Assembly: GCA_025823825.1 (NCBI GenBank)
Contig: GCA_025823825.1_4720.1
Length of the DNA: 64,000 bases
Source: a phage
Reading direction: 5' to 3' (one strand)
Shown one piece after another: positions 10,162-37,145 of the stretch. The notes below the pieces were generated by a model that did not search any database, was not told where the DNA came from, and worked only from the letters and a program-made list of their open reading frames with translations. A program made the translations under genes and the position numbers. Position 1 is the stretch's first letter; each line of letters starts with the position of its first letter.

Positions 10162-10167
10162 TCGTCG

Positions 10168-10269: not shown

Positions 10270-10386
10270 ATGTTACTCATTCTAATGGAGAGAGCATTGC
10301 TGGCGGGTATCTGCGCATTCTCTGTTAAACACGCTGTTGCTATCATGGCTGAAGAAAGGCGTAATACGCATAATGTATTACGCTGA
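10270..10386 (+). CDS. small hydrophobic protein (38 aa), below the ORF-track size cut-off
   Basis: AAGGAGG 8 nt upstream of ATG; translation MLLILMERALLAGICAFSVKHAVAIMAEERRNTHNVLR. Confidence 0.4.
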   Translation: MLLILMERALLAGICAFSVKHAVAIMAEERRNTHNVLR

Positions 10387-10495
10387 AAACACTGTGTGCA
10401 TTAGTGTATGACGAGAAATCGTCGAGGCCCCCGTCTTCACGAGGGCCAACACCTATGCATGATTATCCATCGTCTGTTAAACAAAGGTTATAAAT

Positions 10496-10804
10496 ATGAG
10501 CAATTTGAACGTTGAATTTACTTCAACAACGCCTGTCATGAATGGTGTTGGCACTGAAACCAAAATCGTATTAGAACCCATTCCAGGGTTACGTGATCTC
10601 GGTGATTTTTATCAACTGATGCCGCGTATACGGAAGGCCTTAAACAGCATCGATCTTGATTCCAATAAAGATTTCCAACACGATACAGAAAATACTGATC
10701 ATGTATTGCTACCATCGGGGATCGCAAAATTCACCTACACGCAAACATTGAAAGCCTCCGATGGTGAAATCCGTCGTTTTATCGTTGAAGTAGAAAGCGC
10801 ATAA
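10496..10804 (+). CDS. hypothetical protein (102 aa)
   Basis: Track ORF, followed by a conserved hairpin. Confidence 0.55.
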   Translation: MSNLNVEFTSTTPVMNGVGTETKIVLEPIPGLRDLGDFYQLMPRIRKALNSIDLDSNKDFQHDTENTDHVLLPSGIAKFTYTQTLKASDGEIRRFIVEVESA

Positions 10805-10808
10805 AAAC

Positions 10809-10840
10809 CATCCTCCCAACCCGTAAGGGAAGGGAGGATG
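10809..10840. terminator. conserved CCTCC/GGAGG hairpin element (family member 2)
   Basis: CATCCTCCC-AACCC-GTAA-GGGAA-GGGAGGATG between convergent genes; flanks CATAA ... ATATG. Confidence 0.6.
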
Positions 10841-10857
10841 AAATATGCCGTTAAACG

Positions 10858-11487
10858 TTATTCAACAAACCCTGCGTTCAACAGATTGTCGTAAACACGA
10901 TTAGCGACATCAACAGGAGAATGTGTGTTACTGGTGTCTATACACAACGTTTTCGCGTCGCCGAGATAGTCCATAAAATCCATGTAACGATAACGTCGTT
11001 TATTGAATGTCGCTTCATCGATGTTATCAAACATCTGATGTTTAGCGTGACGAACACGGAACCGTCTTAAATACGTAGGATAGTCGATATCCAGATAAAC
11101 ATAGTAAGACGGCATGATAATCGACGGTAGGTTCGGCAACAATGCGTCAAACAACTTAACGTTGGCATCATTAACCTGATAAACATACGTCGAAGCAATC
11201 GAACGATCGCTAAGCACAGTCTTCCCTTCGTTAAGGGCTGGATGAATCACCTTGTTGAAGAGATGATTGCGTTGCGACATCATCGCCAATAGCTCAGTTT
11301 CTGGATCGAATCTGTTCGTTGGCGTCTGATCTTCCAGGATAAGTTTACGAATGGCTTCTCCGTAGAGTGTACCGCCGGGTTCGCGTACGACACAAACATT
11401 GTTTAAACGACTGTGTAAAGACGAGATAACCGAACTCTTTCCTGAATAATCCAGGCCTTCAATAACGATATATTTATTACGAGACAT
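10858..11487 (-). CDS. tmk: thymidylate (dTMP) kinase
   Basis: N-terminal P-loop KYIVIEGLDYSGKSS matches the Tmk signature (E. coli IVIEGLEGAGKTT); size about 210 aa; start placed at the ATG with GGAG upstream. Confidence 0.8.
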   Translation of the reverse strand: MSRNKYIVIEGLDYSGKSSVISSLHSRLNNVCVVREPGGTLYGEAIRKLILEDQTPTNRFDPETELLAMMSQRNHLFNKVIHPALNEGKTVLSDRSIASTYVYQVNDANVKLFDALLPNLPSIIMPSYYVYLDIDYPTYLRRFRVRHAKHQMFDNIDEATFNKRRYRYMDFMDYLGDAKTLCIDTSNTHSPVDVANRVYDNLLNAGFVE

Positions 11488-11503
11488 TCCCCGCTCCAAT
11501 TAA

Positions 11504-12727
11504 CTACTTCGTTTTCGCCGTTATCGGCTGCGATACTGTAATCTCGACACGATTTTCATCGGTACGTTTAACGATGATAAGGTTGCGTTCATCACCGAAC
11601 GGTTCTGAGATCTTACAAGCCTCTTTAAGATTTTCGAGAATCTTGCCATGGGGTTCAAACACCGCAAAACCGGAACTAGCGTCTATTCTTATTAGACTTA
11701 CACGCGTGCCGTTTACGGTAATAACATCTTCCGTCTTGAATTCACAACAGGAGGGTAGACGGAACTGGCCGGGAATACCGGCTACGTATGCCTCACCACC
11801 GAACATTTCTATTAATGTCACCGGTTTGAATGTTTTCTCTGGGAAAGCATTATTGAGGATATCGTTTCCATTCACAAACCAGATCGTTACTTTATCTTCA
11901 GAATACGCTAGTCGGTACGGTTGGGTTGCGGACGCTTGCGCTTTATGCTGGTTAAATAACTTTGATTTTGTCGCAATCACGGCACGACCTTCGGCGTCGA
12001 AGTACAGAACTTCATATCCAACACATCCGATAAACACGCGACGGTTATTAAGTTCCGGAATTCTGACTACTAACGCATTACCATCTTCCGTCGGTGTAAT
12101 ACCACGTAGGATGATAGATTCATTGTTCAATGTTGAGTTGCTCACGATGACGCTTCGCATTACCGCTGGCGACACTATTTTATCTGCTGCAGGTTCAAGT
12201 TGCTCCGCTGTTACAGTCATGGATCTGTCTTCGTTTTCAACTGGCCGGTTGAAAAGGATTGTTTTATTAAGACAAACAATTGGGGTAATTTCGCCGATAC
12301 TCCGTATCTTGACTGAGGGGCAATTGCACACATACGGAACAAAAACATCAATATCGTTGGTCGCTTCTTCAAGCATGCTAGCATACGCCATTGCTTCGGG
12401 ACGATCGGTGAGATGAATAACAGCATAGACGATATCGTCTTTTAACCACGCACGTTTCACTCGTCCTATAACACGATTGATGTCTACAATAACTCTCTGA
12501 GCTTTCATCTCCCATTTTACTGCATCAGTACCACCCGCAACCACGTTTGGTTTATCCGTGTTTACACGATGAAGGAAACTATTGATTATTTCCTCATTGA
12601 TCTGGATATCCTTTCTCGCAAAATTCAACAACGGAATAACGAACTCATTGTTACCGCACTTCTCTGCTCCGCGAATGATAGGAGTACACTTCTTGTTCTC
12701 ATCTGATCCCCAGATAACTTTAGTCAT
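11504..12727 (-). CDS. hypothetical protein (407 aa) in recombination cluster
   Basis: Track ORF between tmk and the RuvC-like gene; no calcineurin-type phosphoesterase or other motif recognised. Confidence 0.6.
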   Translation of the reverse strand: MTKVIWGSDENKKCTPIIRGAEKCGNNEFVIPLLNFARKDIQINEEIINSFLHRVNTDKPNVVAGGTDAVKWEMKAQRVIVDINRVIGRVKRAWLKDDIVYAVIHLTDRPEAMAYASMLEEATNDIDVFVPYVCNCPSVKIRSIGEITPIVCLNKTILFNRPVENEDRSMTVTAEQLEPAADKIVSPAVMRSVIVSNSTLNNESIILRGITPTEDGNALVVRIPELNNRRVFIGCVGYEVLYFDAEGRAVIATKSKLFNQHKAQASATQPYRLAYSEDKVTIWFVNGNDILNNAFPEKTFKPVTLIEMFGGEAYVAGIPGQFRLPSCCEFKTEDVITVNGTRVSLIRIDASSGFAVFEPHGKILENLKEACKISEPFGDERNLIIVKRTDENRVEITVSQPITAKTK

Positions 12728-12760
12728 TTTCTGTTTCCTTCTTGGGTTTTGTACATGTTG

Positions 12761-13375
12761 CTAACGGCGTTTTGTACCGACCTTCCCATTTCGATGGTCA
12801 TCAAGAATACGCCATTCTTCGAACAGGAGTTCGGCTGCGAAATAACCTACAGCGATGCTGTCTATCGCATGCTCATCAAGATTCGCTAACACAACACCGT
12901 TTCTGGGTGTGATGTTCATGAGGTTCAACACTTTCTGGCGAACATCGTCCTTACCGACACGGGACGTCATGATCCCAACAGCGCGTTTTGCGCTTCGGTT
13001 ATCAACTCCTAAGAAAGACACCGTAGGGTCAAAATCGATAACCGTTGTCTGAATCGCTGAAAACAGCTCGCTGAGCGCCATACCGCTTTGCTTGAAACGA
13101 CCGATGAACGGTGTCTCACAAGCAACCGCTTGCGGCTGGTACTCTTGTAATAACGATGTCAGCGAACGACGGTGTTCTTGGATACGTGCGGCACGATTAC
13201 CGTATCCAAGCGCAATATCGCCATCAGGATCATATCGACGCGAAGCGTGCCATGTCCCCGCATACAGCAGTTCAATATCTTCGACACGCACGTCCAAACG
13301 TAGTAACGACGCACCGAGTGTATCGGTGCCAGGGTCGATTGCCAGAATATCGTAAGCGTATTCTGGTGGGATCAT
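12761..13375 (-). CDS. RuvC-like Holliday junction resolvase
   Basis: N-terminal YDILAIDPGTDTLGASL and C-terminal LDEHAIDSIAVGYF resemble the acidic catalytic motifs of RuvC-family resolvases; ATG overlaps the stop of the upstream gene (ATGA). Confidence 0.7.
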   Translation of the reverse strand: MIPPEYAYDILAIDPGTDTLGASLLRLDVRVEDIELLYAGTWHASRRYDPDGDIALGYGNRAARIQEHRRSLTSLLQEYQPQAVACETPFIGRFKQSGMALSELFSAIQTTVIDFDPTVSFLGVDNRSAKRAVGIMTSRVGKDDVRQKVLNLMNITPRNGVVLANLDEHAIDSIAVGYFAAELLFEEWRILDDHRNGKVGTKRR

Positions 13376-14187
13376 GGTGTTACAACAGCCTCTACTGACC
13401 ATGGGAAGGTTTTCGCAACAACACCTTCCAGGAAGCGTTCAACTTCCGATTGCTCATACACCGAAAGCTTTTCGAACGGCGTTTGGTCTTCGGTTAAACC
13501 TACCGAATGAATAGGACCCAGGTCTTTAACCAGGGTAACTTCGCCTTTAACGCCTTCGCGCTTAACGATGATCGCATGATCATTAACCTTGGGATCGTAC
13601 AGCACGCGCATCATGGTTACTGCATCATCCGGTTCATAACCGAAATCGATGGCAACACGAGCATTCGTCCCTTCATCGTCCAGAAGCTTGCTTAGCGCTT
13701 TACAACGGTCTTCAATCCAATCCAACGCGACCACGGTTTCTTGGCGTAGCTGAACCTCAACCTCTTTTCCTTGTTCGTCGATACGTTTCACGGTAACAAA
13801 ATCGTGTAATAAACGGTCAGGAAGGAGAGAAGCAATAAGCTCAACGTCGGGTTCAGGTTTTTCGTTTTCCAGAATGATGGTCGCTTGTGCGTCCAGATGT
13901 TCTTTAAAACGGATATAGCGTGTTAATCGCAGAACTTCGTCTTGGGATTTTGCGTCTTCGGGAATAATCTCCGTCATGACGTTATAAATCTTTTCAGCGA
14001 ACGTCGGAATTACGGTGATTGTAATTCGTGCTGGTGTACCACGCTCCTGGTACTCATCGGCTAACTTCTTCGCCATCCCGTTAAAGTAGGTCTGGAGAAA
14101 CGGTTGCTGCGTTAAAAACATTTTCTCCAGATCGGAATAGCGATGCTTGCGTGCATGGCCTAGCTTCTTCATGGGTTTTTTCATCAA
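13372..14187 (-). CDS. hypothetical protein (271 aa)
   Basis: Track ORF directly downstream of the Rad50-like gene; no nuclease motif recognised. Confidence 0.55.
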   Translation of the reverse strand: MMKKPMKKLGHARKHRYSDLEKMFLTQQPFLQTYFNGMAKKLADEYQERGTPARITITVIPTFAEKIYNVMTEIIPEDAKSQDEVLRLTRYIRFKEHLDAQATIILENEKPEPDVELIASLLPDRLLHDFVTVKRIDEQGKEVEVQLRQETVVALDWIEDRCKALSKLLDDEGTNARVAIDFGYEPDDAVTMMRVLYDPKVNDHAIIVKREGVKGEVTLVKDLGPIHSVGLTEDQTPFEKLSVYEQSEVERFLEGVVAKTFPWSVEAVVTP

Positions 14188-14205
14188 CAGAAATCCTTAT
14201 TTGTC

Positions 14206-16662
14206 TTAAATAATCGTGACGTGTTCGTTATATGTTTCAGGGAGAATGATGTTCGTTTTATCAAGAACCATACACTCGGCTTTACGGAATGATGCATGGT
14301 TGATCACGTAGTGACTGATGAACCACACCTGGCTTACGCGGTGACCATCAACCAGACGACGAACAAAATCCATGGCATTAGATTGGTGCTGCGGATCAAA
14401 TGTTGATGCGAATTCATCTAACATCAACGGATAATCCGTAAACCCCTTGTAATGCATCATCGCGATGATGAACGCGATATTGATAATTTCCTTTTGTCCC
14501 TTACTCCCATAAACAATATCTTTTCGCGGTGTCGGATACTTCTCAGTTAAAAGCGGAAAACGATAGTTCAATCCTTGCGCGTCGATAGCACACGGGAGTA
14601 TCTGAAGTTGGTATTCCCAAATACTCGCAATGATACCATTCATGTATTCGACGAACGCGTTGATGGGACCCGCAATTGTTTCGGCAATCAGTCCGTTGGA
14701 TGGACTCAACTCATCCAGAACAAGTTGTGCGTAACTGAGCTGTTCTTCCACCTCTTTTTGTGTCGTTTCCAACTGAGCCAGAAGCTGCTGGTCGGTTTTA
14801 GCTTCCTGTAGTTGCTGTTCGACATGACTTATTCGGCGAACTGTATCAGACATCGCAGCACGTAACGATTTCGTGTAGAGGTGTTGCAGATACTCTAACC
14901 ACAGTTGCGTTAACGCTTTATCGCTGTTATCAGAACGCACCTGATCTTCCATAACCGCCGTAATGGTTTCCAATCTACCTTCCGTAGCTGTGATGGCTTG
15001 TGTTAACCGCTCAACGGTTGTTAACAACTCTGTCCTGTTCTTATAAAGCAATTCTCGACGTTGCTGTAACGGTTCAACATCAACCGCTTGTACCCGTTCG
15101 AGCATGCCTTGAAGATGCTTCCGTTCCTGTTCGGCTTGTGTGTAACGCGCAAGTTTCTCAAACGCAAGCAACCAATCGTTAATGATGCCAATGCTGCGGA
15201 ATCCTAAACCGTTTTTGCGGCCTTCTTCCAGCAGATTATCCCACATGGGTTTAATAGCGTAATAATCTTTCGTCCAACGTGTTAACTGACGATGTTGTTC
15301 CATCCAAAGCGTATAGCGCTGCACCTTCTCACTAAGCTCAGCTAACGATTTCTCCTGTTCTTCAACCCAGGCATGGCCCTTCTGAATACGTTGTTCAATA
15401 CCCGCTTTGCTGGTCTTTTCTGTCTCACCAACATGAAAGCGATAATTGCATTTTGGACAGCTGGTCTGGGGTTGATGGTTAAGGTGGTCGAGATGCGCTT
15501 CCAAATCGGCTAACGCATGTTTCGCGTTACGCAAACGCATTCTTGCCGCCTCTTCCTCCTTGATGTAAGCTTCAGCATCGTAAACATGATAGGTGTTGTC
15601 GGTATCAATCCATTCTTGGAGTAATTCCGTTAACGGAGCCTGAACTTGCGTGAGCTGTTGTAAACAAACCGCAGCGTCCAGATTCATCGTTAAAAGCTCG
15701 CCTGGATGATCTTGCTGAAGTTGTTCGTCCAAACGTGCGAGGCGGGCTTTAATCTGATCGATATCACCTTCACCAGACTGTTTCAACTGGTCAAGGATAT
15801 TATCGATACCCAACAGCTCGTCAACCTGACTTTCGAGTTTCGCATTCGCATTCGCGAGTTGCTCTCTTAGTTCAGCCAGATTCTGCTGTTCTTGTTGCGA
15901 TGTTCCTCCTTGGTAACGAACAACCGCATGAAGAAGCTCGCGATTAAAATGATGAGCACGTTGTGCGGATTCCAGAAGCTGTCGTTGATCAACATCACTA
16001 TCGAATAACGGCAATCCCATCATCGCTTCGAGCGCTGAGCGTTGCTGCTTTAACTCCGCTTCCAATCCCTGGTGGTCGGTTCCGGTGTATTTCGCTTCAA
16101 TGCGCTGTGATGTTTCAACCAACTTATTCAATGTATGCTCATTCACCGCTTTCAGTGAACGTACTTGTTGCTTAACAACCTGAAACAACTCGAGCGCATA
16201 ATCGACGTTAACCGGGCATATCTGCGTTAATCGTTCGCGACGTTTCATCGGTCCCATTTCGGTGAACTGGTAAGCTGTTTCGTAACCTAACAACAAACGA
16301 ATGGTGTCGTCATTAAGTTCGAAATGTTCTTCGATCAGTTTCCACTGGGCCGGTTGTGTGCCACCACCATTCAGGTTCTCGCTATCGTTAACGTAGAACT
16401 CATGCTTAAACCCTTTTTCTAAACGACTGATAAGACGGTATTGCTTATTACGGTGTTCGCAGCGGTACTCGTAATACCCGTCTTTATCAAAATCGGCACG
16501 CTCAGGAACGGTCGGATACAGCAAAGGCAATAGACTACTCTTACCCGAACCATTACTGCCTAAAATGAGTTGTACGGGATTATCTGGCCGGATGACCAGC
16601 TCCCGAATCATCCCGGTATCAAAACGATTGAATCCACGTAAGTGGAGATAGGTGCATCGCAT
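14206..16662 (-). CDS. Rad50/SbcC-like ATPase with zinc hook
   Basis: Walker A LILGSNGSGKSS; long central coiled coil with CPKC hook at mid-length; C-terminal signature-like GSKGQKE, Walker B LMLDEF and H-loop FISHY. Start set to the ATG at 16662 (MRCTYLHLRGF, AAGGA upstream). Confidence 0.85.
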   Translation of the reverse strand: MRCTYLHLRGFNRFDTGMIRELVIRPDNPVQLILGSNGSGKSSLLPLLYPTVPERADFDKDGYYEYRCEHRNKQYRLISRLEKGFKHEFYVNDSENLNGGGTQPAQWKLIEEHFELNDDTIRLLLGYETAYQFTEMGPMKRRERLTQICPVNVDYALELFQVVKQQVRSLKAVNEHTLNKLVETSQRIEAKYTGTDHQGLEAELKQQRSALEAMMGLPLFDSDVDQRQLLESAQRAHHFNRELLHAVVRYQGGTSQQEQQNLAELREQLANANAKLESQVDELLGIDNILDQLKQSGEGDIDQIKARLARLDEQLQQDHPGELLTMNLDAAVCLQQLTQVQAPLTELLQEWIDTDNTYHVYDAEAYIKEEEAARMRLRNAKHALADLEAHLDHLNHQPQTSCPKCNYRFHVGETEKTSKAGIEQRIQKGHAWVEEQEKSLAELSEKVQRYTLWMEQHRQLTRWTKDYYAIKPMWDNLLEEGRKNGLGFRSIGIINDWLLAFEKLARYTQAEQERKHLQGMLERVQAVDVEPLQQRRELLYKNRTELLTTVERLTQAITATEGRLETITAVMEDQVRSDNSDKALTQLWLEYLQHLYTKSLRAAMSDTVRRISHVEQQLQEAKTDQQLLAQLETTQKEVEEQLSYAQLVLDELSPSNGLIAETIAGPINAFVEYMNGIIASIWEYQLQILPCAIDAQGLNYRFPLLTEKYPTPRKDIVYGSKGQKEIINIAFIIAMMHYKGFTDYPLMLDEFASTFDPQHQSNAMDFVRRLVDGHRVSQVWFISHYVINHASFRKAECMVLDKTNIILPETYNEHVTII

Positions 16663-16776
16663 GCTATGATAATCCTTCTTCGATACCTTCTGAACCCGTG
16701 GTTCAGAATGCGAAGCTGAAGCCATACTTCAGCGTTATTTTCTATATCGTTATTTAAATCAGTAGGAGATTACAGC

Positions 16777-17865
16777 ATGAGCGATCTGGCAACAGACAAT
16801 CGCACAAAAGGGAGTCAGCTAGCTCCAGACAACAACGTAAGCGTTTTCCGTATCTTTGCCTTGGGTACTGTTGCTGCCGACTTTTCCAATAAAAGTCTGG
16901 AGGAAGATCCTAACCAAACGCTGGAGGTCTTTCTTGATGAGATGATGTCGGGCGCTGATGGGAAAGTTGAAGCGGCGGGAAGCGTTAAAGAAGTCAGTGC
17001 AACAGACGCTCAAGGGAACAGCTATACGGCGAAAGCGGCAACAACAACCAGCGTACAGTGTTACTGGTTACCCTTCGGCAGTAACCGGATGACAGCACCT
17101 AACTTGAGGAAAGGTCAGCGTGTGGTGGTCTGGCGTACCGCCGATGAAGAACAACTCTACTGGCAGCCCAAAGGAGGGGATAGCGAGCTGATGACCATGG
17201 AATCGGTTATCCTCACCGTCAGCGCACGTCCTAGCGCTAAGAAGGACCGTAAATCGATTTCAACGGAAGACTGCTATTACCTAATGGTTGATACCTTCCT
17301 CAAGAAAGCGGTTATCGGTACCAGCGCACAGCTTGGTGAAGTTACCCAAGTTTACATGGAACTTAATCTGGACGAGGGTTACCTACAGGTTGCGGACAGC
17401 GTCCATCAAAATCTGCTGTTACTCCATTTCGTTGAACATATGCTGCGTTATCAAAACCAGGACGACAGCATCATCGACGTGACAAAAAAGAACATCACAT
17501 TCCAGTGCGAGGATACGCTCAAAGCAATTGCTAAGAACGATATCCGAATGAAAGCAAAAAATATTTATACGGAATGTGAGAACTTCGAGCGTACCAGCAA
17601 AACAGAAAGCGTTACGAGTCAGAATGTTTCTTTGAAGTGTGATCGTTACACCGCGCAAGTATCAGGACAGACCACGTTTAAATGTCCGAATACGGTATTC
17701 ACTGGAGCTGTAAGCTTCACAGGTGAAGACGGAAACACGATGACGTTGAATGGGAACTTCATACACGTCGCAGGCTCTTGGCGTTCACCAACCGGAACAA
17801 ACGTATACACCCACGATCACGGTGGTGTAGATCGTGGCAGCGGTCGTACAGACCCATTCCAATAA
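16777..17865 (+). CDS. hypothetical protein (362 aa) with C-terminal HxH motif
   Basis: AGGAGA Shine-Dalgarno; C-terminus ...NVYTHDHGGVDRGSGRTDPFQ; followed by an A11 run and a conserved hairpin. Confidence 0.6.
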   Translation: MSDLATDNRTKGSQLAPDNNVSVFRIFALGTVAADFSNKSLEEDPNQTLEVFLDEMMSGADGKVEAAGSVKEVSATDAQGNSYTAKAATTTSVQCYWLPFGSNRMTAPNLRKGQRVVVWRTADEEQLYWQPKGGDSELMTMESVILTVSARPSAKKDRKSISTEDCYYLMVDTFLKKAVIGTSAQLGEVTQVYMELNLDEGYLQVADSVHQNLLLLHFVEHMLRYQNQDDSIIDVTKKNITFQCEDTLKAIAKNDIRMKAKNIYTECENFERTSKTESVTSQNVSLKCDRYTAQVSGQTTFKCPNTVFTGAVSFTGEDGNTMTLNGNFIHVAGSWRSPTGTNVYTHDHGGVDRGSGRTDPFQ

Positions 17866-17888
17866 AAAAAAAAAGAAATGCTATACAA

Positions 17889-17923
17889 CCTCCTTCCCCG
17901 GCCTTGACGGCTAGGGAAGGAGG
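17889..17923. terminator. conserved CCTCC/GGAGG hairpin element (family member 3)
   Basis: CCTCCTTCCCC...GGGAAGGAGG; on the minus strand it is followed by a T11 run, so it is an intrinsic terminator for the gene 17939..18328. Confidence 0.65.
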
Positions 17924-17938
17924 ATTATAGTTTATTTA

Positions 17939-18328
17939 TTAACGCGTTGCATTCTGGATGATTTCTTTTCCGATCTTAACCAAAGCGGGTATCTGTACAG
18001 CGGTTGCGCCTCGATGACGAAACGCGGTCGTTAACGCGGTATCGATACTCACCGCACGTCCGTGAAGACGATCGAAATAGACTTGAGTGATTGCAGCAGC
18101 ATAATCCTTTCGCTGTTTCTTGGTTTGGTTCAACAGCGTCGCACTATGACTAACGATGAAGTAAGCGATTAAGAAGAACGCCGCTGAACGCGAACCGGGT
18201 AGAAAACCTTGTCGCTTAGGAAGCATCTCACAATCGCGAACAGAATTATCGTTCGCGAGCTCTTCCATGTCAACACAGCATAATTTTGCATAGGTGTGGA
18301 GATAGTGGGTAAAAGTTGAATTTAACAT
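17939..18328 (-). CDS. hypothetical protein (129 aa)
   Basis: Track ORF; GAGGA Shine-Dalgarno. Confidence 0.55.
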   Translation of the reverse strand: MLNSTFTHYLHTYAKLCCVDMEELANDNSVRDCEMLPKRQGFLPGSRSAAFFLIAYFIVSHSATLLNQTKKQRKDYAAAITQVYFDRLHGRAVSIDTALTTAFRHRGATAVQIPALVKIGKEIIQNATR

Positions 18329-18433
18329 TTTCTTTCCTCGATTGCCATGAGTTCAATGTATAGCTTAAACGTCACAGAACGACGTATAACGGTTTGTTTT
18401 AATTTCTAAGGGGTTTCCTTATCTACGATTGAA

Positions 18434-18796
18434 TTAAAGCGTTCTGAAGAGTTCTGTAGCGTTCTCGTCACGTAGACAGGCTTCGTTCAACAATTCAGCT
18501 AACAGCTTCGACCGAACTTCAACAAATGTCCTGAGGCGATGCTCCCATTCTAAACGGATAGTGTACGTATTATCCAGGTTTTTGTAATCAACGACAGATG
18601 TAGAACAACGGGCTTCGCGTTTGTTCACAGCACTCCAAACATCACGGATAACCGTCACGCCTTTCTTGGTACACGTAAACGTTAAAATAAAGCGATTATT
18701 CGCTGCTTCTTCACGGACATGACTAAATTCACTTCGTAACGATGAGACTTTGATCAGTCGGTCAATAGCTAACGATAAACCGATACGTTGTTGCAT
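18434..18796 (-). CDS. hypothetical protein (120 aa)
   Basis: Track ORF in the operon behind the promoter-like motif at 21.76 kb. Confidence 0.5.
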   Translation of the reverse strand: MQQRIGLSLAIDRLIKVSSLRSEFSHVREEAANNRFILTFTCTKKGVTVIRDVWSAVNKREARCSTSVVDYKNLDNTYTIRLEWEHRLRTFVEVRSKLLAELLNEACLRDENATELFRTL

Positions 18797-18797
18797 A

Positions 18798-19223
18798 TCA
18801 AATTCCTTCTTTCAAAATCTCATTAAGACCGTCAGTAATCCAGTCGAACTTCGTCTTAATCATGGCTGGGTTCAATCCATATACTTCCCACACAAGCTGG
18901 GGTTTATGTGTTCCATCGTCCAAACAAAGCACATCGATTGAGAGTACCATACCACCCGTCAATTTCATGTTCTCGCAACTACGAAGATATGCGGATTCTA
19001 GCAATACTTTCCCTAACGCAGTGCAAGCAAATGTTAACCGGGAAGAGTACAGGTACGATGACGTTTTACAGTAGGTTGCTGATATCGGTTGAATATGTTT
19101 GCGGAGTTTGGCGTCTTCACGTAAAAGCAATAACGTGTGATGTAACCGCGTATGCTCGGTAACCGATGAGCTATACTCACCGATACACTCTTCGGCGACT
19201 GATTTAGGCCATTTAATTTGCAT
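18798..19223 (-). CDS. hypothetical protein (141 aa)
   Basis: Track ORF, adjacent to the stop of the upstream gene. Confidence 0.5.
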   Translation of the reverse strand: MQIKWPKSVAEECIGEYSSSVTEHTRLHHTLLLLREDAKLRKHIQPISATYCKTSSYLYSSRLTFACTALGKVLLESAYLRSCENMKLTGGMVLSIDVLCLDDGTHKPQLVWEVYGLNPAMIKTKFDWITDGLNEILKEGI

Positions 19224-19238
19224 GTTCGATTCCCCTTA

Positions 19239-19682
19239 TTAGCAGTACGTGTCGTTCAACACGCGACTCACGTCTAAATGTTCTAGTTGATGTATAATGC
19301 CATCAGCAATGCGTTGTAGATAGGCTGTCTTATCCAATACCGAATCCGATGAAATCGCCCAGTAGGCTTCTGATACCCGATATTCGCTACCTTCACCGAG
19401 ACTGACCTGATTAACCAGCTTCACATCAGCGTATCTCGTCCCACGTTCAGCGTACCAGTAGATGTTTTCCAGTACGTCCTTTCCCGTTTGTGAAAACACA
19501 AACCAAAGCTTCACGTCTAAGCCGGATACTTCGACATCAACGCAGCGAAGATGATTCTCCAAAGGCGCAAAAGAGGCTAAACGTTCCAGCGCGTTTTGCA
19601 GCGTGGGGTGATTAAGCTTTTCTAGATCTTTAGCGGGTTGTTTAGATGATAGCGCGATCGATTTACAGAATTTGGTTTCCAC
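19239..19682 (-). CDS. hypothetical protein (147 aa), GTG start
   Basis: Track ORF; GTG start with AGAGGAA 7 nt upstream. Confidence 0.5.
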   Translation of the reverse strand: METKFCKSIALSSKQPAKDLEKLNHPTLQNALERLASFAPLENHLRCVDVEVSGLDVKLWFVFSQTGKDVLENIYWYAERGTRYADVKLVNQVSLGEGSEYRVSEAYWAISSDSVLDKTAYLQRIADGIIHQLEHLDVSRVLNDTYC

Positions 19683-19712
19683 GGTAGGTTCCTCTTGATA
19701 GATGGTAGTAAC

Positions 19713-19732
19713 GGGGATACCGCGGTATCCCC
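19713..19732. promoter_or_regulatory. perfect 20-nt palindrome GGGGATACCGCGGTATCCCC
   Basis: Lies about 30 nt upstream of the start of 19239..19682; the half-site GGGATACC recurs at 33.06 kb. Confidence 0.5.
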
Positions 19733-19790
19733 TAAGTCTTTATAACACATTCCAAGCCATATTGGATACAGGCTCGTTACGTTCGATGAA

Positions 19791-20192
19791 TCACATCAGT
19801 TGTTCTTTAAGTTGGGTTAACTTATTCGCAACGATGGTCTCAACATCGATGATCTTGTTCATGTTGTCGAGGGTATCCTGCCAGATGAAAATATCCACAG
19901 AACGGGTTCCGGCTAACCCGTTCTCAGGACGATGGTCGCGGGTCACGTAGCGTGGTCTCTGCGGGCAGGTTTGTAACTCGATCCAAAGCGCATCTAACGG
20001 ACCACGGTCCGTGACACCTAAGGCGAAGAATTCACCTCGTACGACCAGAACATCATCAGCCGTCCTGACACGGGTTGATCCTTCGTACACCAATTCCATC
20101 TTTGCTCGGCAGGCTGGGTTCTCGTTCCACGCCTGGACGGCATCGGCAAGGGCTATTGACGTTGCGGTGGTGTTCGTTTGATCATGTTGCAT
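19791..20192 (-). CDS. hypothetical protein (133 aa)
   Basis: Track ORF. Confidence 0.5.
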   Translation of the reverse strand: MQHDQTNTTATSIALADAVQAWNENPACRAKMELVYEGSTRVRTADDVLVVRGEFFALGVTDRGPLDALWIELQTCPQRPRYVTRDHRPENGLAGTRSVDIFIWQDTLDNMNKIIDVETIVANKLTQLKEQLM

Positions 20193-20269
20193 TCTAAGCT
20201 CCTGTAACGCTCTCTAAGCGTCGTTTTAAGTTAAGGTATAGTTTCCCTTCTTTGGATTCGTTTATTGCG

Positions 20270-20545
20270 TTATACGGCTTTTCTGTGCGCGTAGAACGCC
20301 TTCGTTCCGTTGTTGATTGCTTCAACCACATCCCGGGTTAACACAACGGCGTTATCGCTTCGAGACGACGGTGCGTAATACCCTTCACCGTTCTCGGTAA
20401 TCAGGCGATAACGGACTAAGCCTATGCTCGGTTCAACACGTAGCACCTTTTCAAGTTTGTATTTGATGATCTTCGTCAGGCTGACTGTGTCTGACGCGTA
20501 GATTGCTTTATAAACCTTGTTCTTTGCTGTCGGTTTCATCAACAT
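20270..20545 (-). CDS. hypothetical protein (91 aa)
   Basis: Track ORF. Confidence 0.45.
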   Translation of the reverse strand: MLMKPTAKNKVYKAIYASDTVSLTKIIKYKLEKVLRVEPSIGLVRYRLITENGEGYYAPSSRSDNAVVLTRDVVEAINNGTKAFYAHRKAV

Positions 20546-20585
20546 GATTTCTGTTGTACTTTCCTTTTCGCTTGTTGGTGTTGGA

Positions 20586-20885
20586 TTAAGGTTTAGGTTC
20601 CGTTTTGTGTTGTGTGAGTAGTGTGTTGATCTGCTCCCGTTGTTCTTTTAAGTATGCGGGAAGCTGGTCTTCCCATACCGTTCCGATTTCCAACGTGATG
20701 TACCAGCGTTGTTCGGAAGCCAGCCATTGAAAACCGCTCTGTAAACGAAGGATGCTAGGATCACGTACCTTGCTTGCGCTGTAACGGTTGAACCAATCCA
20801 GGTATTCTGCTTTCCCTTCATCGTCGGCAACGTAACGCTGCACGCTGTTCTTCCCTTTGTTCTCGTATCCCGTTGCACGTATCAT
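20586..20885 (-). CDS. hypothetical protein (about 100 aa)
   Basis: Track ORF 20586..20939; the internal ATG at 20885 gives an ATGA overlap with the upstream stop; start choice is uncertain. Confidence 0.45.
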   Translation of the reverse strand: MIRATGYENKGKNSVQRYVADDEGKAEYLDWFNRYSASKVRDPSILRLQSGFQWLASEQRWYITLEIGTVWEDQLPAYLKEQREQINTLLTQHKTEPKP

Positions 20886-21664
20886 GCGAGCGTTGCTCCC
20901 GTATCGTGTTGCGTATGGCGTAGCATGGTAGCATCCCATTGTACGATCCGGCTCCGGCTTACCCGCATCATGATGGATTCGTCATCAAGCCCTGGTTGCA
21001 CAACCGGCAACCAACGTTCGTTAAGCACCTTCGCTTCAACGCGTTTCTTGCGGGGATTGTAACGCACCTCGCTAACCCAAGCGAATCCAAGTGGATGCAC
21101 AACCCGTGGATAATACATGCGGAGCAATTGATGCATCCGATCTGTCACCTCCAGGTTAACATCCACCATGTAAGGTTTCACCATGGTAAGCTTTTTGGTG
21201 TAATACGTTCCAACGGTATGGTTACGCCAGCATGGCAAGGCATGATCCCCTTCTCTCAGTTTGCTATCCGGGTTCATCGGCCAGAACTGCTGTTCACCGC
21301 CCAGCATCGCGTGCCGCCGATCAACGCAACGAACCTGATCGGCGAACAATGGATCCAGGATATCATCCACCGCGCCCTTATTGCGATAACCGTGATGTAC
21401 CACCAACCTGCTTGCGCTCATCCGTTGCGGATGCTGGCTCTTATGCGCATACAGTCCTCCATCACCGCGCGTGTCGTAAAGATAGCCGCATGCGCCACGC
21501 CATATCACCTTGCCTACGGTTCTCTCGTTTTCAAGCAGCATCGTCGGCCCATCAAGCAAATTGGTGAACCACTGCACCTTCACGCATTCCGCTTGGACAT
21601 GCTCAGGTAATGCCTGATACTCTTTTTGGGTGTATAAGGTATCAAAAATGATTTCATCGTTCAT
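20882..21664 (-). CDS. hypothetical protein (260 aa), first gene of the operon
   Basis: AGAGGA about 10 nt upstream of ATG; the promoter-like motif lies about 100 nt upstream. A 223-aa antisense ORF on the plus strand was rejected. Confidence 0.55.
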   Translation of the reverse strand: MNDEIIFDTLYTQKEYQALPEHVQAECVKVQWFTNLLDGPTMLLENERTVGKVIWRGACGYLYDTRGDGGLYAHKSQHPQRMSASRLVVHHGYRNKGAVDDILDPLFADQVRCVDRRHAMLGGEQQFWPMNPDSKLREGDHALPCWRNHTVGTYYTKKLTMVKPYMVDVNLEVTDRMHQLLRMYYPRVVHPLGFAWVSEVRYNPRKKRVEAKVLNERWLPVVQPGLDDESIMMRVSRSRIVQWDATMLRHTQHDTGATLA

Positions 21665-21754
21665 TTAAAAGATCCTCTGTTTTTCACGTTAATTAAACAA
21701 CGTATTGATTTCTATTCGATAGCAATACGAACATCGTACGTATGCATCATGAAG

Positions 21755-21771
21755 GTAATATAGCCGTGAAA
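21755..21771 (-). promoter_or_regulatory. promoter-like motif, copy 2 (TATATTAC core)
   Basis: Minus-strand reading TTTCACGGCTATATTACCTTCATGA; identical 17-nt core to copy 1. Confidence 0.55.
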
Positions 21772-22464
21772 GGATTTGTGTTACAGAAGGGTTTTGTTGT
21801 TTTTAAGAAGGGATGGATTTAGAAGAGGTGTTTCAAGGAAGGTAAACGAGGATAGGTATTTTGATTTAAGTAAGTAAGATGTTATCTGTATTTGTTAAAA
21901 GTGTATTGTTTATCTTAGGTTATGTCTTATTGTTTAATCGTTTAATATTTTTATCTACGTAGGTTTAACTCTATCTTGTTTGTATATTTAAATTAATTTA
22001 AAAGTAAGTCAATAAGCGTATCTTCAAAACAATGGATAACATGTGTTTACTACCTTAACGGTAACACATGTCATCTGTGCATTACACTCCGTTACATGCT
22101 GGTTAAATCGGATAACTCAAAAAAACATTTGTGATACTCTTCTTCACGTTGTTCATCAGAGTATCTCGTCTATACTCATTGCATTCGTATACGACATAAC
22201 CGTTATACGCTAACGCTACGCTTATAGCTTGATAACTCTAAGGATAAAAACATAAACTCGCTTCGCTCGTTTAGTTTTTCTTTTTCTTAGAGTTATCCTG
22301 TTGCTCGTCTCTAAAGGACTTCGCTCCTCCCCCGTCCCCCGAAGGGGCCGAGGTCGTGGAAATTTTACTTTCCAAATACATTTACAACATCTGTAAACTT
22401 TTACTCCAGGTACTTAATCTTATCATTAGAAATTATAAAAGAGAAGAATAAACATAAACATAAA

Positions 22465-22496
22465 CCTTCCTCCAACCCAGCAGGGAAGGAGGAAGG
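22465..22496. terminator. conserved CCTCC/GGAGG hairpin element (family member 4)
   Basis: CCTTCCTCC-AACCC-AGCA-GGGAA-GGAGGAAGG, 12 nt downstream of the stop of 22508..23401; CATAAACATAAA on the 5' flank. Confidence 0.6.
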
Positions 22497-22507
22497 GAGA
22501 GATTAAA

Positions 22508-23401
22508 TTATTCGGAAACGTTATAGCCGAATACTGCTTTACCGTAGGTGTGGGTACCGTCAGCTAACGACACCACTAACACATTGCTGTACGTAGCGTT
22601 AACACCATTGTCGGTAGAACTGGTGGTAGCACCGTTATAGACAAAGGTAGCTGTTTGCAGATTGGTTTTCAGTTCATTGATGATATCATCACTTACGCCG
22701 GTCTGCTCTTTGATCAGGGTGGTCAGGTTACCTGCTAAGCTTGCATCGATCTTGGTGTCGTTACTGGTAATAGCTTGTAAACCTGCAGTGTAGGTGCTGA
22801 AGTCTAACGGATAGGTTAACAGACGCGCTGAGGTCTTGGTACCATCGCCTTCATCAACGTAGGTTAAGTTACCCAGGTTGGTAACCTCGATGATGTTAGC
22901 CAGATCCAGCGTGGTGTTATAAACTTTAACTTGAACAGAGCCATACCACGCCAACGAATCTTCTTTGGCTTCCAGGGTGATCGTCTGGATACCAGACTGA
23001 TCGAAGGTAACCGGAGTAGCTAACGTTTCGGCTTTGATGTCTTTCGCTTTATCCAGGAACTTCTCACCGGAAGGCGTGATCATACCGTAGCGTTGAGCTA
23101 CAAGGTCAACCACATCACCGATGGTGGTGTTCGCCTCAACGTTAACACGTACGGCGATCTTCTGGAACCACTTAGCCAGATCCAGACGATGGTAGGTAAC
23201 ATCGCGGTTATTGAAGTAAGGGGTACCTTCACCAGGACTAAGTGTTAAAGTTGCTTCTGGAGCAGAAGGATTCTTTTCTTTAAGGACGTATTTAAGGTCG
23301 GTATATTTAAAGCTGGCACCAGTGTCAGCGTTAAGCTGGTTGATCTCATCAACGATAAGTTGCCAAGGTGTTTTTAAAGTAAGCGATACTTGAGCAGTCA
23401 T
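22508..23401 (-). CDS. abundant Thr/Ser/Asn-rich protein, probably structural (297 aa)
   Basis: Track ORF 22508..23677 trimmed to the ATG at 23401 (GAGGAAG upstream); codon usage is biased toward E. coli-preferred codons. Confidence 0.6.
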   Translation of the reverse strand: MTAQVSLTLKTPWQLIVDEINQLNADTGASFKYTDLKYVLKEKNPSAPEATLTLSPGEGTPYFNNRDVTYHRLDLAKWFQKIAVRVNVEANTTIGDVVDLVAQRYGMITPSGEKFLDKAKDIKAETLATPVTFDQSGIQTITLEAKEDSLAWYGSVQVKVYNTTLDLANIIEVTNLGNLTYVDEGDGTKTSARLLTYPLDFSTYTAGLQAITSNDTKIDASLAGNLTTLIKEQTGVSDDIINELKTNLQTATFVYNGATTSSTDNGVNATYSNVLVVSLADGTHTYGKAVFGYNVSE

Positions 23402-23540
23402 TTTCTTCCTCGATAGTTGGTACATCACTCTCAAAAGATGTAAGTGTTTACAGAAATTAATATATTTTATATTAAATGTGAATATTATGGAGAACGACTC
23501 CGAATCTCCTTTTCGACCATCAAAATCAGAGGACACGAAC

Positions 23541-24086
23541 ATGTCTACTTTAGACTTTAACAAAGCAGCGAAATCCCTTCTGCTTGATCTTATTAACACC
23601 AAAGCGACCCGCACATTGGCTGAAGAAGAACTGCAGTTCGGTACTCCGCAGGAATCTTCCGAACATGAAAAGAACACCGTTATTCAGCTGGACGCGGCGG
23701 CTGAAGCAGCTAACCTGCAGGGTACTCAGCAGTTCTACTACGATCGTCTGGCTCTGTCTGACGTTTTCGCTGATGTAACTGGTGATGTTACTTTCGAACT
23801 GCCGCACGGTACTGACAGCATTCAGGCTTCTGAGCTGGTAAGCAAGCTGGTCACCAAATTCGGTCTGGCTTCCCTGAATGGTGAAATCAGAGAAGAAACC
23901 TTCCAGCTGTCTGCCGGTACTGTTGGTGAGGTAATTCTGAATGCGATCGAGGGTGGCCTGGTATACACTGGTACTCTGCGAGTTGCCCTGACCTACGCAC
24001 TGGCACCAAAAGACGAACTGGCAACCGTTCTGGCGAATAACGTAGCTGAAGGTTTCGAGAAACCGACCGTTAGCGTTGTTGGCTAA
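23541..24086 (+). CDS. abundant small protein, probably structural (181 aa)
   Basis: ATG with AGAGGA 8 nt upstream; very strong codon bias (CTG, GGT, CGT, ACC, CCG); the antisense ORF 23550..24095 was rejected. Confidence 0.65.
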   Translation: MSTLDFNKAAKSLLLDLINTKATRTLAEEELQFGTPQESSEHEKNTVIQLDAAAEAANLQGTQQFYYDRLALSDVFADVTGDVTFELPHGTDSIQASELVSKLVTKFGLASLNGEIREETFQLSAGTVGEVILNAIEGGLVYTGTLRVALTYALAPKDELATVLANNVAEGFEKPTVSVVG

Positions 24087-24284
24087 TAAGCACATAGAGC
24101 AATAGTATGGGTTTTGTACAGCTCGGCTATTGATCTTCTACAATTTGGTTGTAACAATCTGCGTGGTTGCACGCTTATCTTTCTCATTGAACGCTTCGTA
24201 TGAAGCGTGGTGTTGAAAGGGTTGTGGATCTCCTCAAGCGGCCAGGGACCCAGACCAACCTGAATAAACACAAACACATGTTAA

Positions 24285-24318
24285 GCCCCTCCTCATCCGT
24301 TATTGGGTGGGGAGGGGT
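24285..24318. terminator. GC-rich hairpin between convergent genes (divergent family member)
   Basis: GCCCCTCC ... GGAGGGGT around a longer loop. Confidence 0.4.
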
Positions 24319-24380
24319 CTTATACGTCTTTATGCGTTCCGTTCGTTCTGGATCGTTTTAGGACGGTTTATGATGGTGTT

Positions 24381-25016
24381 TTACTCAACACTGAACCCGT
24401 TCAAGATGATCGCTTCATAACGCTTACGTTCACGACGTTTGCGTGCCTGCCAACCGTAGATGAATTTCTCATCTTTCTCACGACGTTCCGCTAATTCGAT
24501 GTAATAGGTGCTCTGCATATCCAGCATCGCGTCGATGAGATAATCCTTACCGGTTGCACCACGCTTAGCGATGTAAGCATCAAGAGCTGCCAGTGATTTG
24601 GGACCCATTGCACCATCAGCATCAATATCTTTCCAGTAAGTTTGACGGTTGTTCATGACGTTCAGGTAACGCTGGAGGTTCTTAACTGCGACTGATTTGC
24701 CTGCGTTGATACCCAGGTCAAAGAGACGGTCAGCTAAAAACACAGAACGTTTCATGACTTCATCAAGCTTCATCTTATCCCAGAAGTGGGTCTTGTAGAT
24801 AAAGAACGCCATTTCCGTGGTAAGGTTACGCATGTTACCGTTCCAGCCGAATTTCGTTTTCAGTGTGGTTTTGTATTGATTGGCAAGCGCTTGCGTAATG
24901 CCGTGGTTTGTGATTCCGCCCGAATCATCGGGATCGTCGACGTAACCTGCTTCGATGCTGGTTTTGTCGCGAATGATAAATTCGCACGTAAAATCTTTTT
25001 CAGTAATCTTAGCCAT
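24381..25016 (-). CDS. endolysin, GH108-type muramidase with probable peptidoglycan-binding domain
   Basis: N-terminal ...EAGYVDDPDDSGGITNHGIT... matches the GH108 signature; no signal peptide. Confidence 0.75.
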   Translation of the reverse strand: MAKITEKDFTCEFIIRDKTSIEAGYVDDPDDSGGITNHGITQALANQYKTTLKTKFGWNGNMRNLTTEMAFFIYKTHFWDKMKLDEVMKRSVFLADRLFDLGINAGKSVAVKNLQRYLNVMNNRQTYWKDIDADGAMGPKSLAALDAYIAKRGATGKDYLIDAMLDMQSTYYIELAERREKDEKFIYGWQARKRRERKRYEAIILNGFSVE

Positions 25017-34461: not shown

Positions 34462-35367
34462 TTATGCTACATATAACGTTAGATAACCGTCGATGAGCGT
34501 ATTCATCACACTGAGTTGAAGTACGACAGCTTTACTAACATCCGTACGTACACCAAACGGGAGTGTTTTGAATTGCTCTGGATCGGCTATTACTTTCGCG
34601 TTCTGCAAGTTGAGTGGTCCAGGCATTGACGACAATACCCAGCGATCGTTGACCATAAGGCCGTCGATCTCTTCAGAGAGACCCAATTGCAGTGCGTTCA
34701 TTTCTGCGATTAGTGCCTCCGATTGCGTATCACCTGAGGTTAACGTATACCCATCGGTAAGTGACGCCAGAACACCAGCAGATACGAACCAGTTGTACGA
34801 AACAATAGCGCCTGGGAGTTTACTGCTATCTCGATCGATGATATAATTCAACCCAGCCAACATATTGTTGCGAACGAGGTTGTTGAGGTCGTTATGTCCT
34901 GAAGTTAACTCAACAAGTAATTGACCAACCCATACTTGGTTACCGGGTTTAGGTGTTATCGCAACCTGTATCGGTGACCTGGACTTATCCAGATCCGCGT
35001 CGACAATCTCGGTTTTGTTGAGAAGGATACCGTACGTCGATGCTAAGACAGGTAGGATCTCAGAGACCTTGGTTAATGCATCTAAGGTTTCGATCTCGAT
35101 GGGCCAGTGGTGCTGTCCGCCAGACCAAGTACCCAGTTTACCAAGATCGATGCGGTTATAATAGATGTCGACAGAGTTCACCAGCCCTGAACCAGGTTGG
35201 GGATGCACGGTTAACTTGCTGTTACGCTTGTACCCTGTGCTTTCAGAAGCTTCACCGATAACCAGTTTATCCAGCGTTACGCCTCGAGCATCGAAATCGC
35301 TATGCTTTCGAATCAGCCGAAAGAGGATTTCTTTCGATTCTAACCCCAGGATTTCACTGTACTCCAT
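34462..35367 (-). CDS. paralogous virion-type protein, family member A (301 aa)
   Basis: Shares STYGI, RWVL, NLQNAKV and a C-terminal L..Y motif with 36284..37135 and 37146..38081. Confidence 0.6.
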   Translation of the reverse strand: MEYSEILGLESKEILFRLIRKHSDFDARGVTLDKLVIGEASESTGYKRNSKLTVHPQPGSGLVNSVDIYYNRIDLGKLGTWSGGQHHWPIEIETLDALTKVSEILPVLASTYGILLNKTEIVDADLDKSRSPIQVAITPKPGNQVWVGQLLVELTSGHNDLNNLVRNNMLAGLNYIIDRDSSKLPGAIVSYNWFVSAGVLASLTDGYTLTSGDTQSEALIAEMNALQLGLSEEIDGLMVNDRWVLSSMPGPLNLQNAKVIADPEQFKTLPFGVRTDVSKAVVLQLSVMNTLIDGYLTLYVA

Positions 35368-35382
35368 TTAACACCTCTTAGG

Positions 35383-36267
35383 TTACGGTAGGATTTCTGC
35401 GCCCGTCGGGCCTGCCTTACGAGCTTCCAACGCACCAAGGTCGTATTTCAGTGTCAGCGTATCGTTGGTGGTATAAAGGTTGTGGTAAGTCGAAATCAGA
35501 TCGGTAACCTGCGCGCCGACGATTTCGTTCATGTCGAAGGTAGAACCTTGACCATCATCAGCACGAACGATTTTATCGCCAGCAGAGACCATCCCAATTT
35601 CAGAAATAACCGCGTACTCTTCACCACCTTCTGTGAGTTTAGCCACATTGAGATATTCGTTAATATCCCATGGCGTCCAAACCAAAGAGACTTTACAGCT
35701 GTAGTCGTAGTACTCCCCGGTCGCTACCAGAATTCCGGTTGTTGGAATATCCGGTCGGGCGGGGTTGAGGTTCGCGTCGGTTGGATGCCATTCGATGGTC
35801 TGAGCGACGCCGTCGACGTATTTGGTATAACGCATGGAGCGGACAACGTTATCGAAATCGATGCGACGACCGTAATAACAGATATACTTTTTACCGCTTT
35901 CCAGTGTCTCAATACGACGTAACCCAAATTTAGCGCGTTCGTCTGTGGTTAAGTCGTTACCAACCTCACGCATTACGAAAGGTTTGATTTTCCACGGTGA
36001 AAGATCGCTTGCTTCGTGAGCGATCGGCATCGAGGAAGGGATACCGTTAGCGTTGCGGATGAATTCGTGACCCTGGTTGCCGATACAGAAGTAACGTACA
36101 GCAGGATTACCCTCGGGGTAAACCTTTGATTGAATCTGAAGCTTTTCATTCAAGGTGCTGTGTTCTTCCCACGCATGAGGAAGACCGAGCGTAAGGTTAG
36201 TTTGTACTTGACCGCCGATAATCGTACGGACGATACGATCGGTAGCACGGATTTGTGTAGAAGCCAT
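35383..36267 (-). CDS. hypothetical protein (294 aa) in the same operon
   Basis: Track ORF; no clear similarity to its neighbours. Confidence 0.6.
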   Translation of the reverse strand: MASTQIRATDRIVRTIIGGQVQTNLTLGLPHAWEEHSTLNEKLQIQSKVYPEGNPAVRYFCIGNQGHEFIRNANGIPSSMPIAHEASDLSPWKIKPFVMREVGNDLTTDERAKFGLRRIETLESGKKYICYYGRRIDFDNVVRSMRYTKYVDGVAQTIEWHPTDANLNPARPDIPTTGILVATGEYYDYSCKVSLVWTPWDINEYLNVAKLTEGGEEYAVISEIGMVSAGDKIVRADDGQGSTFDMNEIVGAQVTDLISTYHNLYTTNDTLTLKYDLGALEARKAGPTGAEILP

Positions 36268-36283
36268 GTCTTTTCCTATTTAA

Positions 36284-37135: not shown

Positions 37136-37145
37136 TGTTTATTCC

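Follow-up and report, generated by a model that had tools for sequence, protein, structure and literature searches.

What do two divergent, strongly codon-biased phage genes encode, and what in the short AT-rich spacer between them drives their expression? The question was raised by positions 22508-24086 of a 64,000-nucleotide stretch of phage DNA (contig GCA_025823825.1_4720.1 of NCBI GenBank assembly GCA_025823825.1), referred to here as the window. One gene occupies 22508-23401 on the minus strand and the other 23541-24086 on the plus strand, coordinates and orientation that a first-pass annotation, made from the sequence alone, had given correctly. That annotation took the products for very abundant proteins without a recognisable domain, expressed from a strong bidirectional promoter. 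Our analysis indicates that the genes probably encode paralogous DUF7941 proteins which are made in large amounts late in infection, form filaments anchored on the baseplate and are expressed in the way proposed below.

The DNA of the 2-kb region around the pair was 92.1% identical to positions 15613-17613 of Escherichia phage vB_EcoM_Goslar (NC_048170), a nucleus-forming jumbo phage of the family Chimalliviridae. Over a longer range, window positions 6664-25000 aligned with positions 1-18319 of Goslar at about 95% identity. Window positions 1-6663 gave no one-piece alignment to the start of the Goslar record, and the window evidently spans the linearisation point of that record. To judge from these alignments, the window is from a Goslar-like chimallivirus, a nucleus-forming jumbo phage with 92-95% DNA identity to Goslar, and the two genes are the orthologues of Goslar gp22 and gp23. 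The gp22-like gene (22508-23401, minus strand) encodes 297 amino acids (aa), with the ATG at 23399-23401 and the ribosome-binding site GAGGAAG. The gp23-like gene (23541-24086, plus strand) encodes 181 aa, and its ribosome-binding site AGAGGA lies 7 nt upstream. Their products were 88% and 89% identical in amino acid sequence to Goslar gp22 and gp23, respectively, and the Goslar record annotates both gp022 and gp023 as 'virion structural protein'. The divergent order beside a GH108 endolysin gene was the same in Goslar and in the relatives designated L007, L008 and L009. In these relatives gp22 identity was 80% (L009), 77% (L008) and 51% (L007). An antisense open reading frame (ORF) of exactly 181 aa over the gp23-like gene (23550-24095, minus strand) was chosen by a length-based gene caller; we rejected it as a mere shadow, on the opposite strand, of a gene with strong codon bias. 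The orthologues were described as Goslar gp22 and gp23 in a preprint of April 2026 that deals with the virion of Goslar (bioRxiv 10.64898/2026.04.21.720040), so the pair is not new.

Both products exceeded the curated gathering score (27 bits) of Pfam PF25613 (DUF7941), so the statement that neither has a recognisable domain was wrong. The gp22-like protein scored 176.0 bits (E 1.4e-51) over profile positions 4-275 of 276, and the gp23-like protein 70.0 bits (E 3.1e-19) over positions 4-174 of 276. This coverage shows that the short protein corresponds to the N-terminal two-thirds of the long one. The gp22-like protein is thus a full-length DUF7941 protein with N-terminal domain, conserved linker and C-terminal domain, and the gp23-like protein is a short paralogue with the N-terminal domain and a linker or tail, without the C-terminal domain. 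The AlphaFold2 model of the long protein (mean pLDDT 86.5) showed two domains with a linker of low confidence between them, around residues 165-190, and that of the short protein (mean pLDDT 83.7) had a single domain and a low-confidence C-terminal tail. Both proteins also matched PHROG 1037/2935, 'virion structural protein'. In a sequence search of the PDB the long protein matched phiKZ gp127 (9xqd chain 0) with an E value of 8e-7. The same search with the gp23-like protein gave no match, and its link to gp127 was found by fold search. In the Foldseek search against the PDB, 9xqd_0 was the only significant match of each model (E 5.3e-7 for the gp22-like and 4.9e-7 for the gp23-like protein), with TM scores of 0.62/0.73 for the gp23-like model and 0.66-0.73 on the target over both models. 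Direct BLASTP comparison of the two proteins was not significant (E 0.07), and their paralogy therefore rests on the common Pfam model and the common fold.

The abundance of the proteins has been estimated in Goslar. Label-free mass spectrometry gave about 2144 copies of gp23 (range 1428-3368) and about 577 copies of gp22 per virion, and both are among the twelve most abundant unmodelled Goslar proteins (bioRxiv 10.64898/2026.04.21.720040). The prediction of very abundant proteins was thus borne out by virion proteomics, the check that the first-pass annotation had suggested, as done on the Goslar orthologues; for the phage studied here, high abundance is suggested by codon bias. According to the same preprint, gp22 and gp23 are paralogues with DUF7941, and eight other Goslar proteins also have the module; DUF7941 proteins other than this pair bear carbohydrate-binding, hydrolase or leucine-rich repeat (LRR) domains. 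Purified gp22 formed filaments in negative stain, and in an AlphaFold prediction the linker docked head-to-tail on the N-terminal domain in the next protomer. The authors proposed a 'DUF7941 fibre cloud' that would be attached to the peripheral baseplate (bioRxiv 10.64898/2026.04.21.720040). A full-text literature search for DUF7941 found only this preprint and one unrelated mention. In phiKZ, the outer peripheral baseplate has star lobes, in each of which gp127 caps a band of gp139 dimers (PMC13250141). We follow the preprint in placing the pair there only as a proposal: gp22 and gp23, which are recovered with virions, would be produced late in infection in very large amounts, their polymers would be attached to the outer baseplate at the site of the phiKZ homologue gp127, and they would act as flexible filaments that aid in finding the host.

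Codon usage was assessed with the codon adaptation index (CAI), computed for 60 ORFs of the window with the published Sharp-Li E. coli weights. The capsid gene (50116-52338) ranked first at 0.744, the gp23-like gene second at 0.619 and the gp22-like gene third at 0.452, against a mean of 0.306 (standard deviation 0.094). Both genes therefore exceed the average, as the first-pass annotation had expected, and a bias second to that of the capsid gene was confirmed by rank. The description as strong holds for the gp23-like gene; the gp22-like gene is only moderately codon-optimised, practically tied with the endolysin gene (0.451). Synonymous codons were also redrawn from the average usage of the phage with the protein sequence fixed (2000 simulations). 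Because the redrawn codons gave a CAI of only about 0.29, the bias is real and not an effect of amino acid composition: the observed values had z scores of 12.6 (gp23-like) and 7.3 (gp22-like), and none of the 2000 simulations reached them. In the whole Goslar genome the CAI was 0.743 for the capsid gene, 0.731 for gp58, 0.659 for gp23, 0.655 for gp214 and 0.613 for chimallin; gp22, at 0.467, was level with the sheath and tube proteins. The index roughly paralleled the proteomic ranking by copy number, and the top values belonged mostly to abundant proteins, with gp158, gp88 and gp7 as exceptions that are abundant yet have only middling values. Codon optimisation towards E. coli fits a high translational demand. 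Codon bias seen by eye had thus pointed to two proteins that rank among the most abundant in virion preparations.

The pattern of divergence among relatives was uneven. Compared with the window, L008 and L009 were 91-95% identical in the endolysin, 77-80% in gp22, 50-51% in gp23 and 91-98% in the flanking non-coding DNA. Since gp23 is so much lower than the endolysin, gp22 and the flanks, it is a local hot spot of divergence. Its residues 1-75 and its tail DLATVLAxNVAxGFxKPT (DLATVLANNVAEGFEKPTVS) were invariant and the middle was variable; the linker residues of gp22 hardly varied, even when paralogues were compared. Such a pattern would be seen if the invariant ends formed the polymerisation interface and the variable middle were exposed. 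The 294 bp between the gp23-like gene and the convergent endolysin gene (24087-24380), an unusually long and conserved 3' region, were 91-95% identical in relatives, where the gp23 coding DNA was 66% identical. Just past the stop codon of the gp23-like gene, relatives have a 10-bp stem, AGAGCAATAG...CTATTGCTCT, which has one mismatch in the window.

Further DUF7941 genes lie elsewhere in the window, all on the minus strand: 34462-35367 (Pfam E 9e-56), 36284-37135 (E 5e-48) and the gp34-like gene 37146-38081 (E 3e-63). These three flank a DUF7208 baseplate-spoke gene at 35383-36267 (minus strand; Pfam E 1e-96), which is homologous to gp32, the spoke protein of Goslar, and to phiKZ gp139; the counterparts of the DUF7941 genes in the block 34462-38081 are Goslar gp31, gp33 and gp34. 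The gp34-like gene has an apparent GTG start, and an ATG-only gene call shortens it to 199 aa. The hypervariability of gp23 and the DUF7941 genes around the spoke gene fit an exposed or host-facing role, which they would favour.

Several points weigh against placing the filaments on the baseplate. Density for gp22 and gp23 was not seen in the Goslar maps, including those of the baseplate, so that their placement there is a proposal, and the virion preparation also held chimallin and PhuZ, so that free filaments might co-purify (bioRxiv 10.64898/2026.04.21.720040). Furthermore, phiKZ gp127 is present in one copy per star lobe, or 6 per virion (PMC13250141), whereas the Goslar-type proteins are estimated at hundreds to thousands. 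It could thus be argued that gp22 and gp23 are abundant intracellular filaments with a cytoskeletal, scaffolding or other role, which merely co-purify with virions as PhuZ filaments and nuclear-shell fragments do, the more so as purified gp22 polymerises alone. We consider this main alternative rather unlikely. The fold is common to phiKZ gp127, which is resolved in the baseplate; other Goslar DUF7941 proteins have carbohydrate-binding, hydrolase or LRR domains; the paralogues group with tail and baseplate genes; and gp23 is hypervariable in comparison with its flanks, as an exposed protein would be.

Still less probable is that the two reside inside the head, are packaged together with the DNA and are ejected into the host like the PF12699 proteins of similar copy number. 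The copy number of gp23 (about 2144) is almost equal to that of the internal protein gp58 (about 2150), and both have a very high CAI. However, the Pfam search gave no PF12699 similarity, the sole structural relative is a baseplate protein, and the neighbours are genes for tail fibres, endolysin and baseplate rather than for the head. The fold kinship with a baseplate protein and the gene neighbourhood make an internal, ejected role unlikely, and baseplate-anchored filaments are the reading we retain.

How are such amounts produced? The spacer (23402-23540) is 139 bp long, close to the 140 bp first noted, and is indeed AT-rich, with 33% G+C against 46.6% for the window, which places it in the lowest 1% of sequence windows. 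Its 37-nt core (23455-23491) has 11% G+C, in the lowest 0.02%, and the AT-rich string quoted in the first-pass annotation sits at 23456-23490. In the alignment with relatives, conservation within the spacer was lowest in the core, which in L008 and L009 is longer by a 10-nt insertion, about one helical turn. The conserved blocks were a 12-mer, and TATGG with the leader of the gp23-like gene.

The 12-mer GTAAGTGTTTAC (23440-23451, plus strand) is an instance of the palindrome GTAA-N4-TTAC and a candidate upstream promoter or regulator element in common with the capsid gene. Besides this site, the window had only one other copy of the exact 12-mer, at 52423-52434 (minus strand) upstream of the capsid gene; the Goslar genome (237 kb) likewise had just two copies, in the same two places. 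The GTAA and TTAC half-sites were retained in relatives. In Goslar the pattern GTAA-N4-TTAC was observed 16 times against 4.5 expected, and 13 of the 16 sites were intergenic by the annotation of the record. Many of the sites lay in divergent spacers, among them gp29/30, gp144/145, chimallin/gp245 and sheath/gp219, and upstream of the capsid, gp23, chimallin and sheath genes.

Downstream of the 12-mer is TATG (23486-23489, plus strand), the candidate core of a phiKZ-type late promoter, with a predicted start at G 23489 and a 52-nt leader. In phiKZ, the non-virion RNA polymerase requires TATG to transcribe late genes; its G is +1, and any single substitution in it was damaging (PMC4666361). The polymerase binds the TATG in single-stranded form, beneath its beta-lobe (PMC12809450). 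TATGG stood 34 nt past the 12-mer in the window, and 33 nt past it both in Goslar and upstream of the capsid gene. It was conserved in L008 and L009 despite only 50% identity of gp23. L007 has TATG at the equivalent position, 32 nt past the related sequence GTAACGTTTAAC.

At exactly the predicted +1 begins a predicted 5' stem-loop of the gp23-like mRNA (GGAGA...UCUCC; 23489-23509, plus strand). The stem was kept in L008 and L009 through an A-to-G change that gives a G-U pair, and L007 has instead an unrelated stem, GAUUGG...CCAAUC, which also begins at the G of TATG. The capsid leader likewise opens with a stem, GGUC-UAUC-GACC; the upstream region of the capsid gene occupies 52339-52487 of the window, and among the 13 capsid loci obtained the only difference there was a single base in L132. 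In Goslar, TATG followed by an inverted repeat with its first arm at the G was found upstream of numerous abundant late genes (capsid, gp23, gp214, sheath, gp88, gp208, gp7 and gp161). A general rule of TATG with a hairpin at +1 is not claimed, as such sites were only weakly above background.

The predicted promoter of the gp23-like gene is well supported by these conserved sequence motifs. We propose that the non-virion RNA polymerase would transcribe the gene from TATG with G 23489 as +1, that the upstream palindrome GTAAGTGTTTAC, common only to this gene and the capsid gene, would assist the start, and that the mRNA would open with the 5' stem-loop and run for about 240 nt beyond the stop codon, to a terminator made up of a hairpin and UUAU. 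The following observations count against this scheme. The spacing from the 12-mer to TATG is 43 nt in L008 and L009, not 33-34 nt. TATG alone is common, and one relative of 71% identity has TAGG upstream of its capsid gene. Genome-wide, a hairpin at +1 followed TATG at only 12 of 81 sites, against a background of 8.7%. No mapped transcription starts for this phage group were found in the literature searched, and no TATG occurs within 500 nt upstream of the gp22-like gene. A scan of viral contigs with a degenerate promoter pattern, in which the matches listed were mostly due to chance, speaks neither for nor against the scheme.

A candidate start of the gp22-like gene is G 23423, in GATG. Read towards this gene, the palindrome gives ...ACACTTAC, 38 nt before its ATG. 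This sequence resembles the middle-promoter motif of phiKZ, AAanTTAC (PMC4666361), and the match in L007 is exact (AACGTTAC). It is possible that GTAA-N4-TTAC is one shared bidirectional element between the genes; the gp22-like gene would be expressed less strongly, probably through the same palindrome read in the other direction. The strong bidirectional promoter first suggested is borne out only in part: the gp23-like gene has a predicted late start signal, the gp22-like gene has none of this kind within 500 nt, and no sigma-70 site of normal spacing lies in the spacer. A more specific idea is that the spacer is a dedicated high-output module, consisting of the palindrome, about 33 nt or one more helical turn, TATG and the +1 stem-loop, in which a putative dimeric phage factor would bind the palindrome and so drive both genes; we put this forward tentatively and regard it as doubtful. 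The model implicit in the first-pass annotation, in which host RNA polymerase would use the AT-rich spacer as a strong bidirectional promoter of the sigma-70 type, is most improbable: although a relaxed scan found TTTACA-N15-TATATT on the plus strand, agreeing at 10 of 12 consensus positions, its hexamers are 15 nt apart, which is why the standard scan (16-18 nt) finds no site in the spacer, the relaxed scan finds no comparable site on the minus strand, conservation is lowest in the AT-rich core with its 10-nt insertion in relatives, and phiKZ-like phages use their own polymerases, host polymerase not using late phage promoters (PMC4666361).

Each gene had been described as followed by a hairpin terminator, which is accurate for the gp22-like gene and needs revision for the gp23-like gene. 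The intrinsic terminator of the former (22465-22496, minus strand) consists of CCUUCCUCC...GGAGGAAGG followed by UUUAUGUUUAUG, 11 nt past the stop codon, where its transcript would stop. Its hairpin (dG -24.5 kcal/mol, z -5.96) was conserved in four relatives. The hairpin nearest to the gp23-like gene, found by pattern scan at 24161-24174 (plus strand) and followed by TTATCTTTCT, lies 75 nt past the stop codon and is weak (dG -7.9, z -1.4); 16 of 200 shuffled sequences folded equally well, and it is probably not the main terminator. A strong hairpin, GCCCCUCCUC...GGGGAGGGGU followed by UCUUAUACGUCUUUAUGCG, lies about 200 nt past the stop codon at approximately 24280-24322 (plus strand). It had a dG of -32.5 (z -5.07) on the plus strand and -27.8 (z -4.5) on the minus strand, and was conserved in all relatives including L007, where the tail in the plus sense is UUUUAUGCC. 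The Goslar record annotates its counterpart as a minus-strand terminator. This hairpin is likely the terminator of the gp23-like gene, and is possibly shared with the convergent endolysin gene.

Beyond the terminator of the gp22-like gene, a gene-free stretch of 843 bp (21665-22507) holds an element of about 410 nt (21995-22405, minus strand) that is unannotated in Goslar. It was 98.5% identical to Goslar and 93% to L008 and L009, values that exceed those of the neighbouring coding DNA; it was found neither in L007 nor outside Goslar-like phages, and the relative L135 lacks its last 110 nt or so. The element begins with GTAAAAGTTTAC, a variant of the 12-mer that is also present upstream of chimallin in Goslar. 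On both strands its predicted folding was far stronger than that of shuffled sequence (z -6.2 and -6.7), and several G-U pairs and G-U/G-C switches favoured the minus strand. For covariation, the six copies varied too little, G-U/G-C switches being the only changes. No ORF of at least 40 aa was found on its minus strand, and one GTG-start ORF of 56 aa lies on the plus strand (22043-22213). A tRNA scan and an Rfam search of the window at gathering thresholds gave no match, nor did a permissive Rfam search of 21600-24400. The element may be a structured RNA of Goslar-like phages or a cis-acting element at the DNA level. The most enriched upstream motif was (C)GGCTATATTAC, with four copies in the window (8193-8203, 9221-9231, 21755-21765 and 58609-58619; minus strand) against 0.56 expected. 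It also precedes chimallin in Goslar and resembles the AT-rich early promoter of phiKZ-like phages.

The role of the DUF7941 family, as a cloud of host-finding filaments on the baseplate of nucleus-forming jumbo phages, is still a proposal. The variability of gp23 relative to its flanks, its invariant termini and the predicted promoter module that it has in common with the capsid gene agree with a protein that is exposed, polymerises by itself and is made at capsid-like amounts. What the present analysis would add to the published description is the predicted anatomy of promoter and terminators, the apparent link to the capsid promoter and the pattern of divergence. If the control module exists, it would explain the 'downstream and upstream determinants without consensus' of phiKZ late promoters.

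Compared with known phiKZ late promoters (e.g. P119L; PMC4666361, PMC12809450), the predicted starts share TATG about 50 nt upstream of the gp23-like and capsid genes, the lack of a -10/-35 architecture and the association with late structural genes. They differ in that the described consensus has neither a palindrome at a fixed 33-34 nt nor a +1 stem-loop, in that the gp22-like gene has no TATG, and in that the starts in the window are predicted from sequence. Terminators in phiKZ are C-rich/G-rich hairpins followed by TTAT (PMC10914365), and both terminators in the window are likewise CCYCC...GGRGG hairpins followed by UUAU(G), although in the gp23-like gene about 200 nt separate the stop codon from the terminator, which follows a conserved 3' region and faces a convergent gene. 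The closest known system is Goslar gp22 (YP_009820707) and gp23 (YP_009820708), which have the same position, orientation and neighbours, and in which gp23 is likewise gp22 minus the C-terminal domain. Goslar is another isolate, with about 92% DNA identity at the locus; the gp23-like protein of the window begins MSTLDF rather than MALDF, and no functional difference is apparent from the sequence. More distant is phiKZ gp127, described together with gp126 (PDB 9xqd). It is only 14-18% identical to the window proteins, but it is of the same family by sequence, has the same N-terminal fold, is associated with the baseplate and comes from a member of the same phage family.

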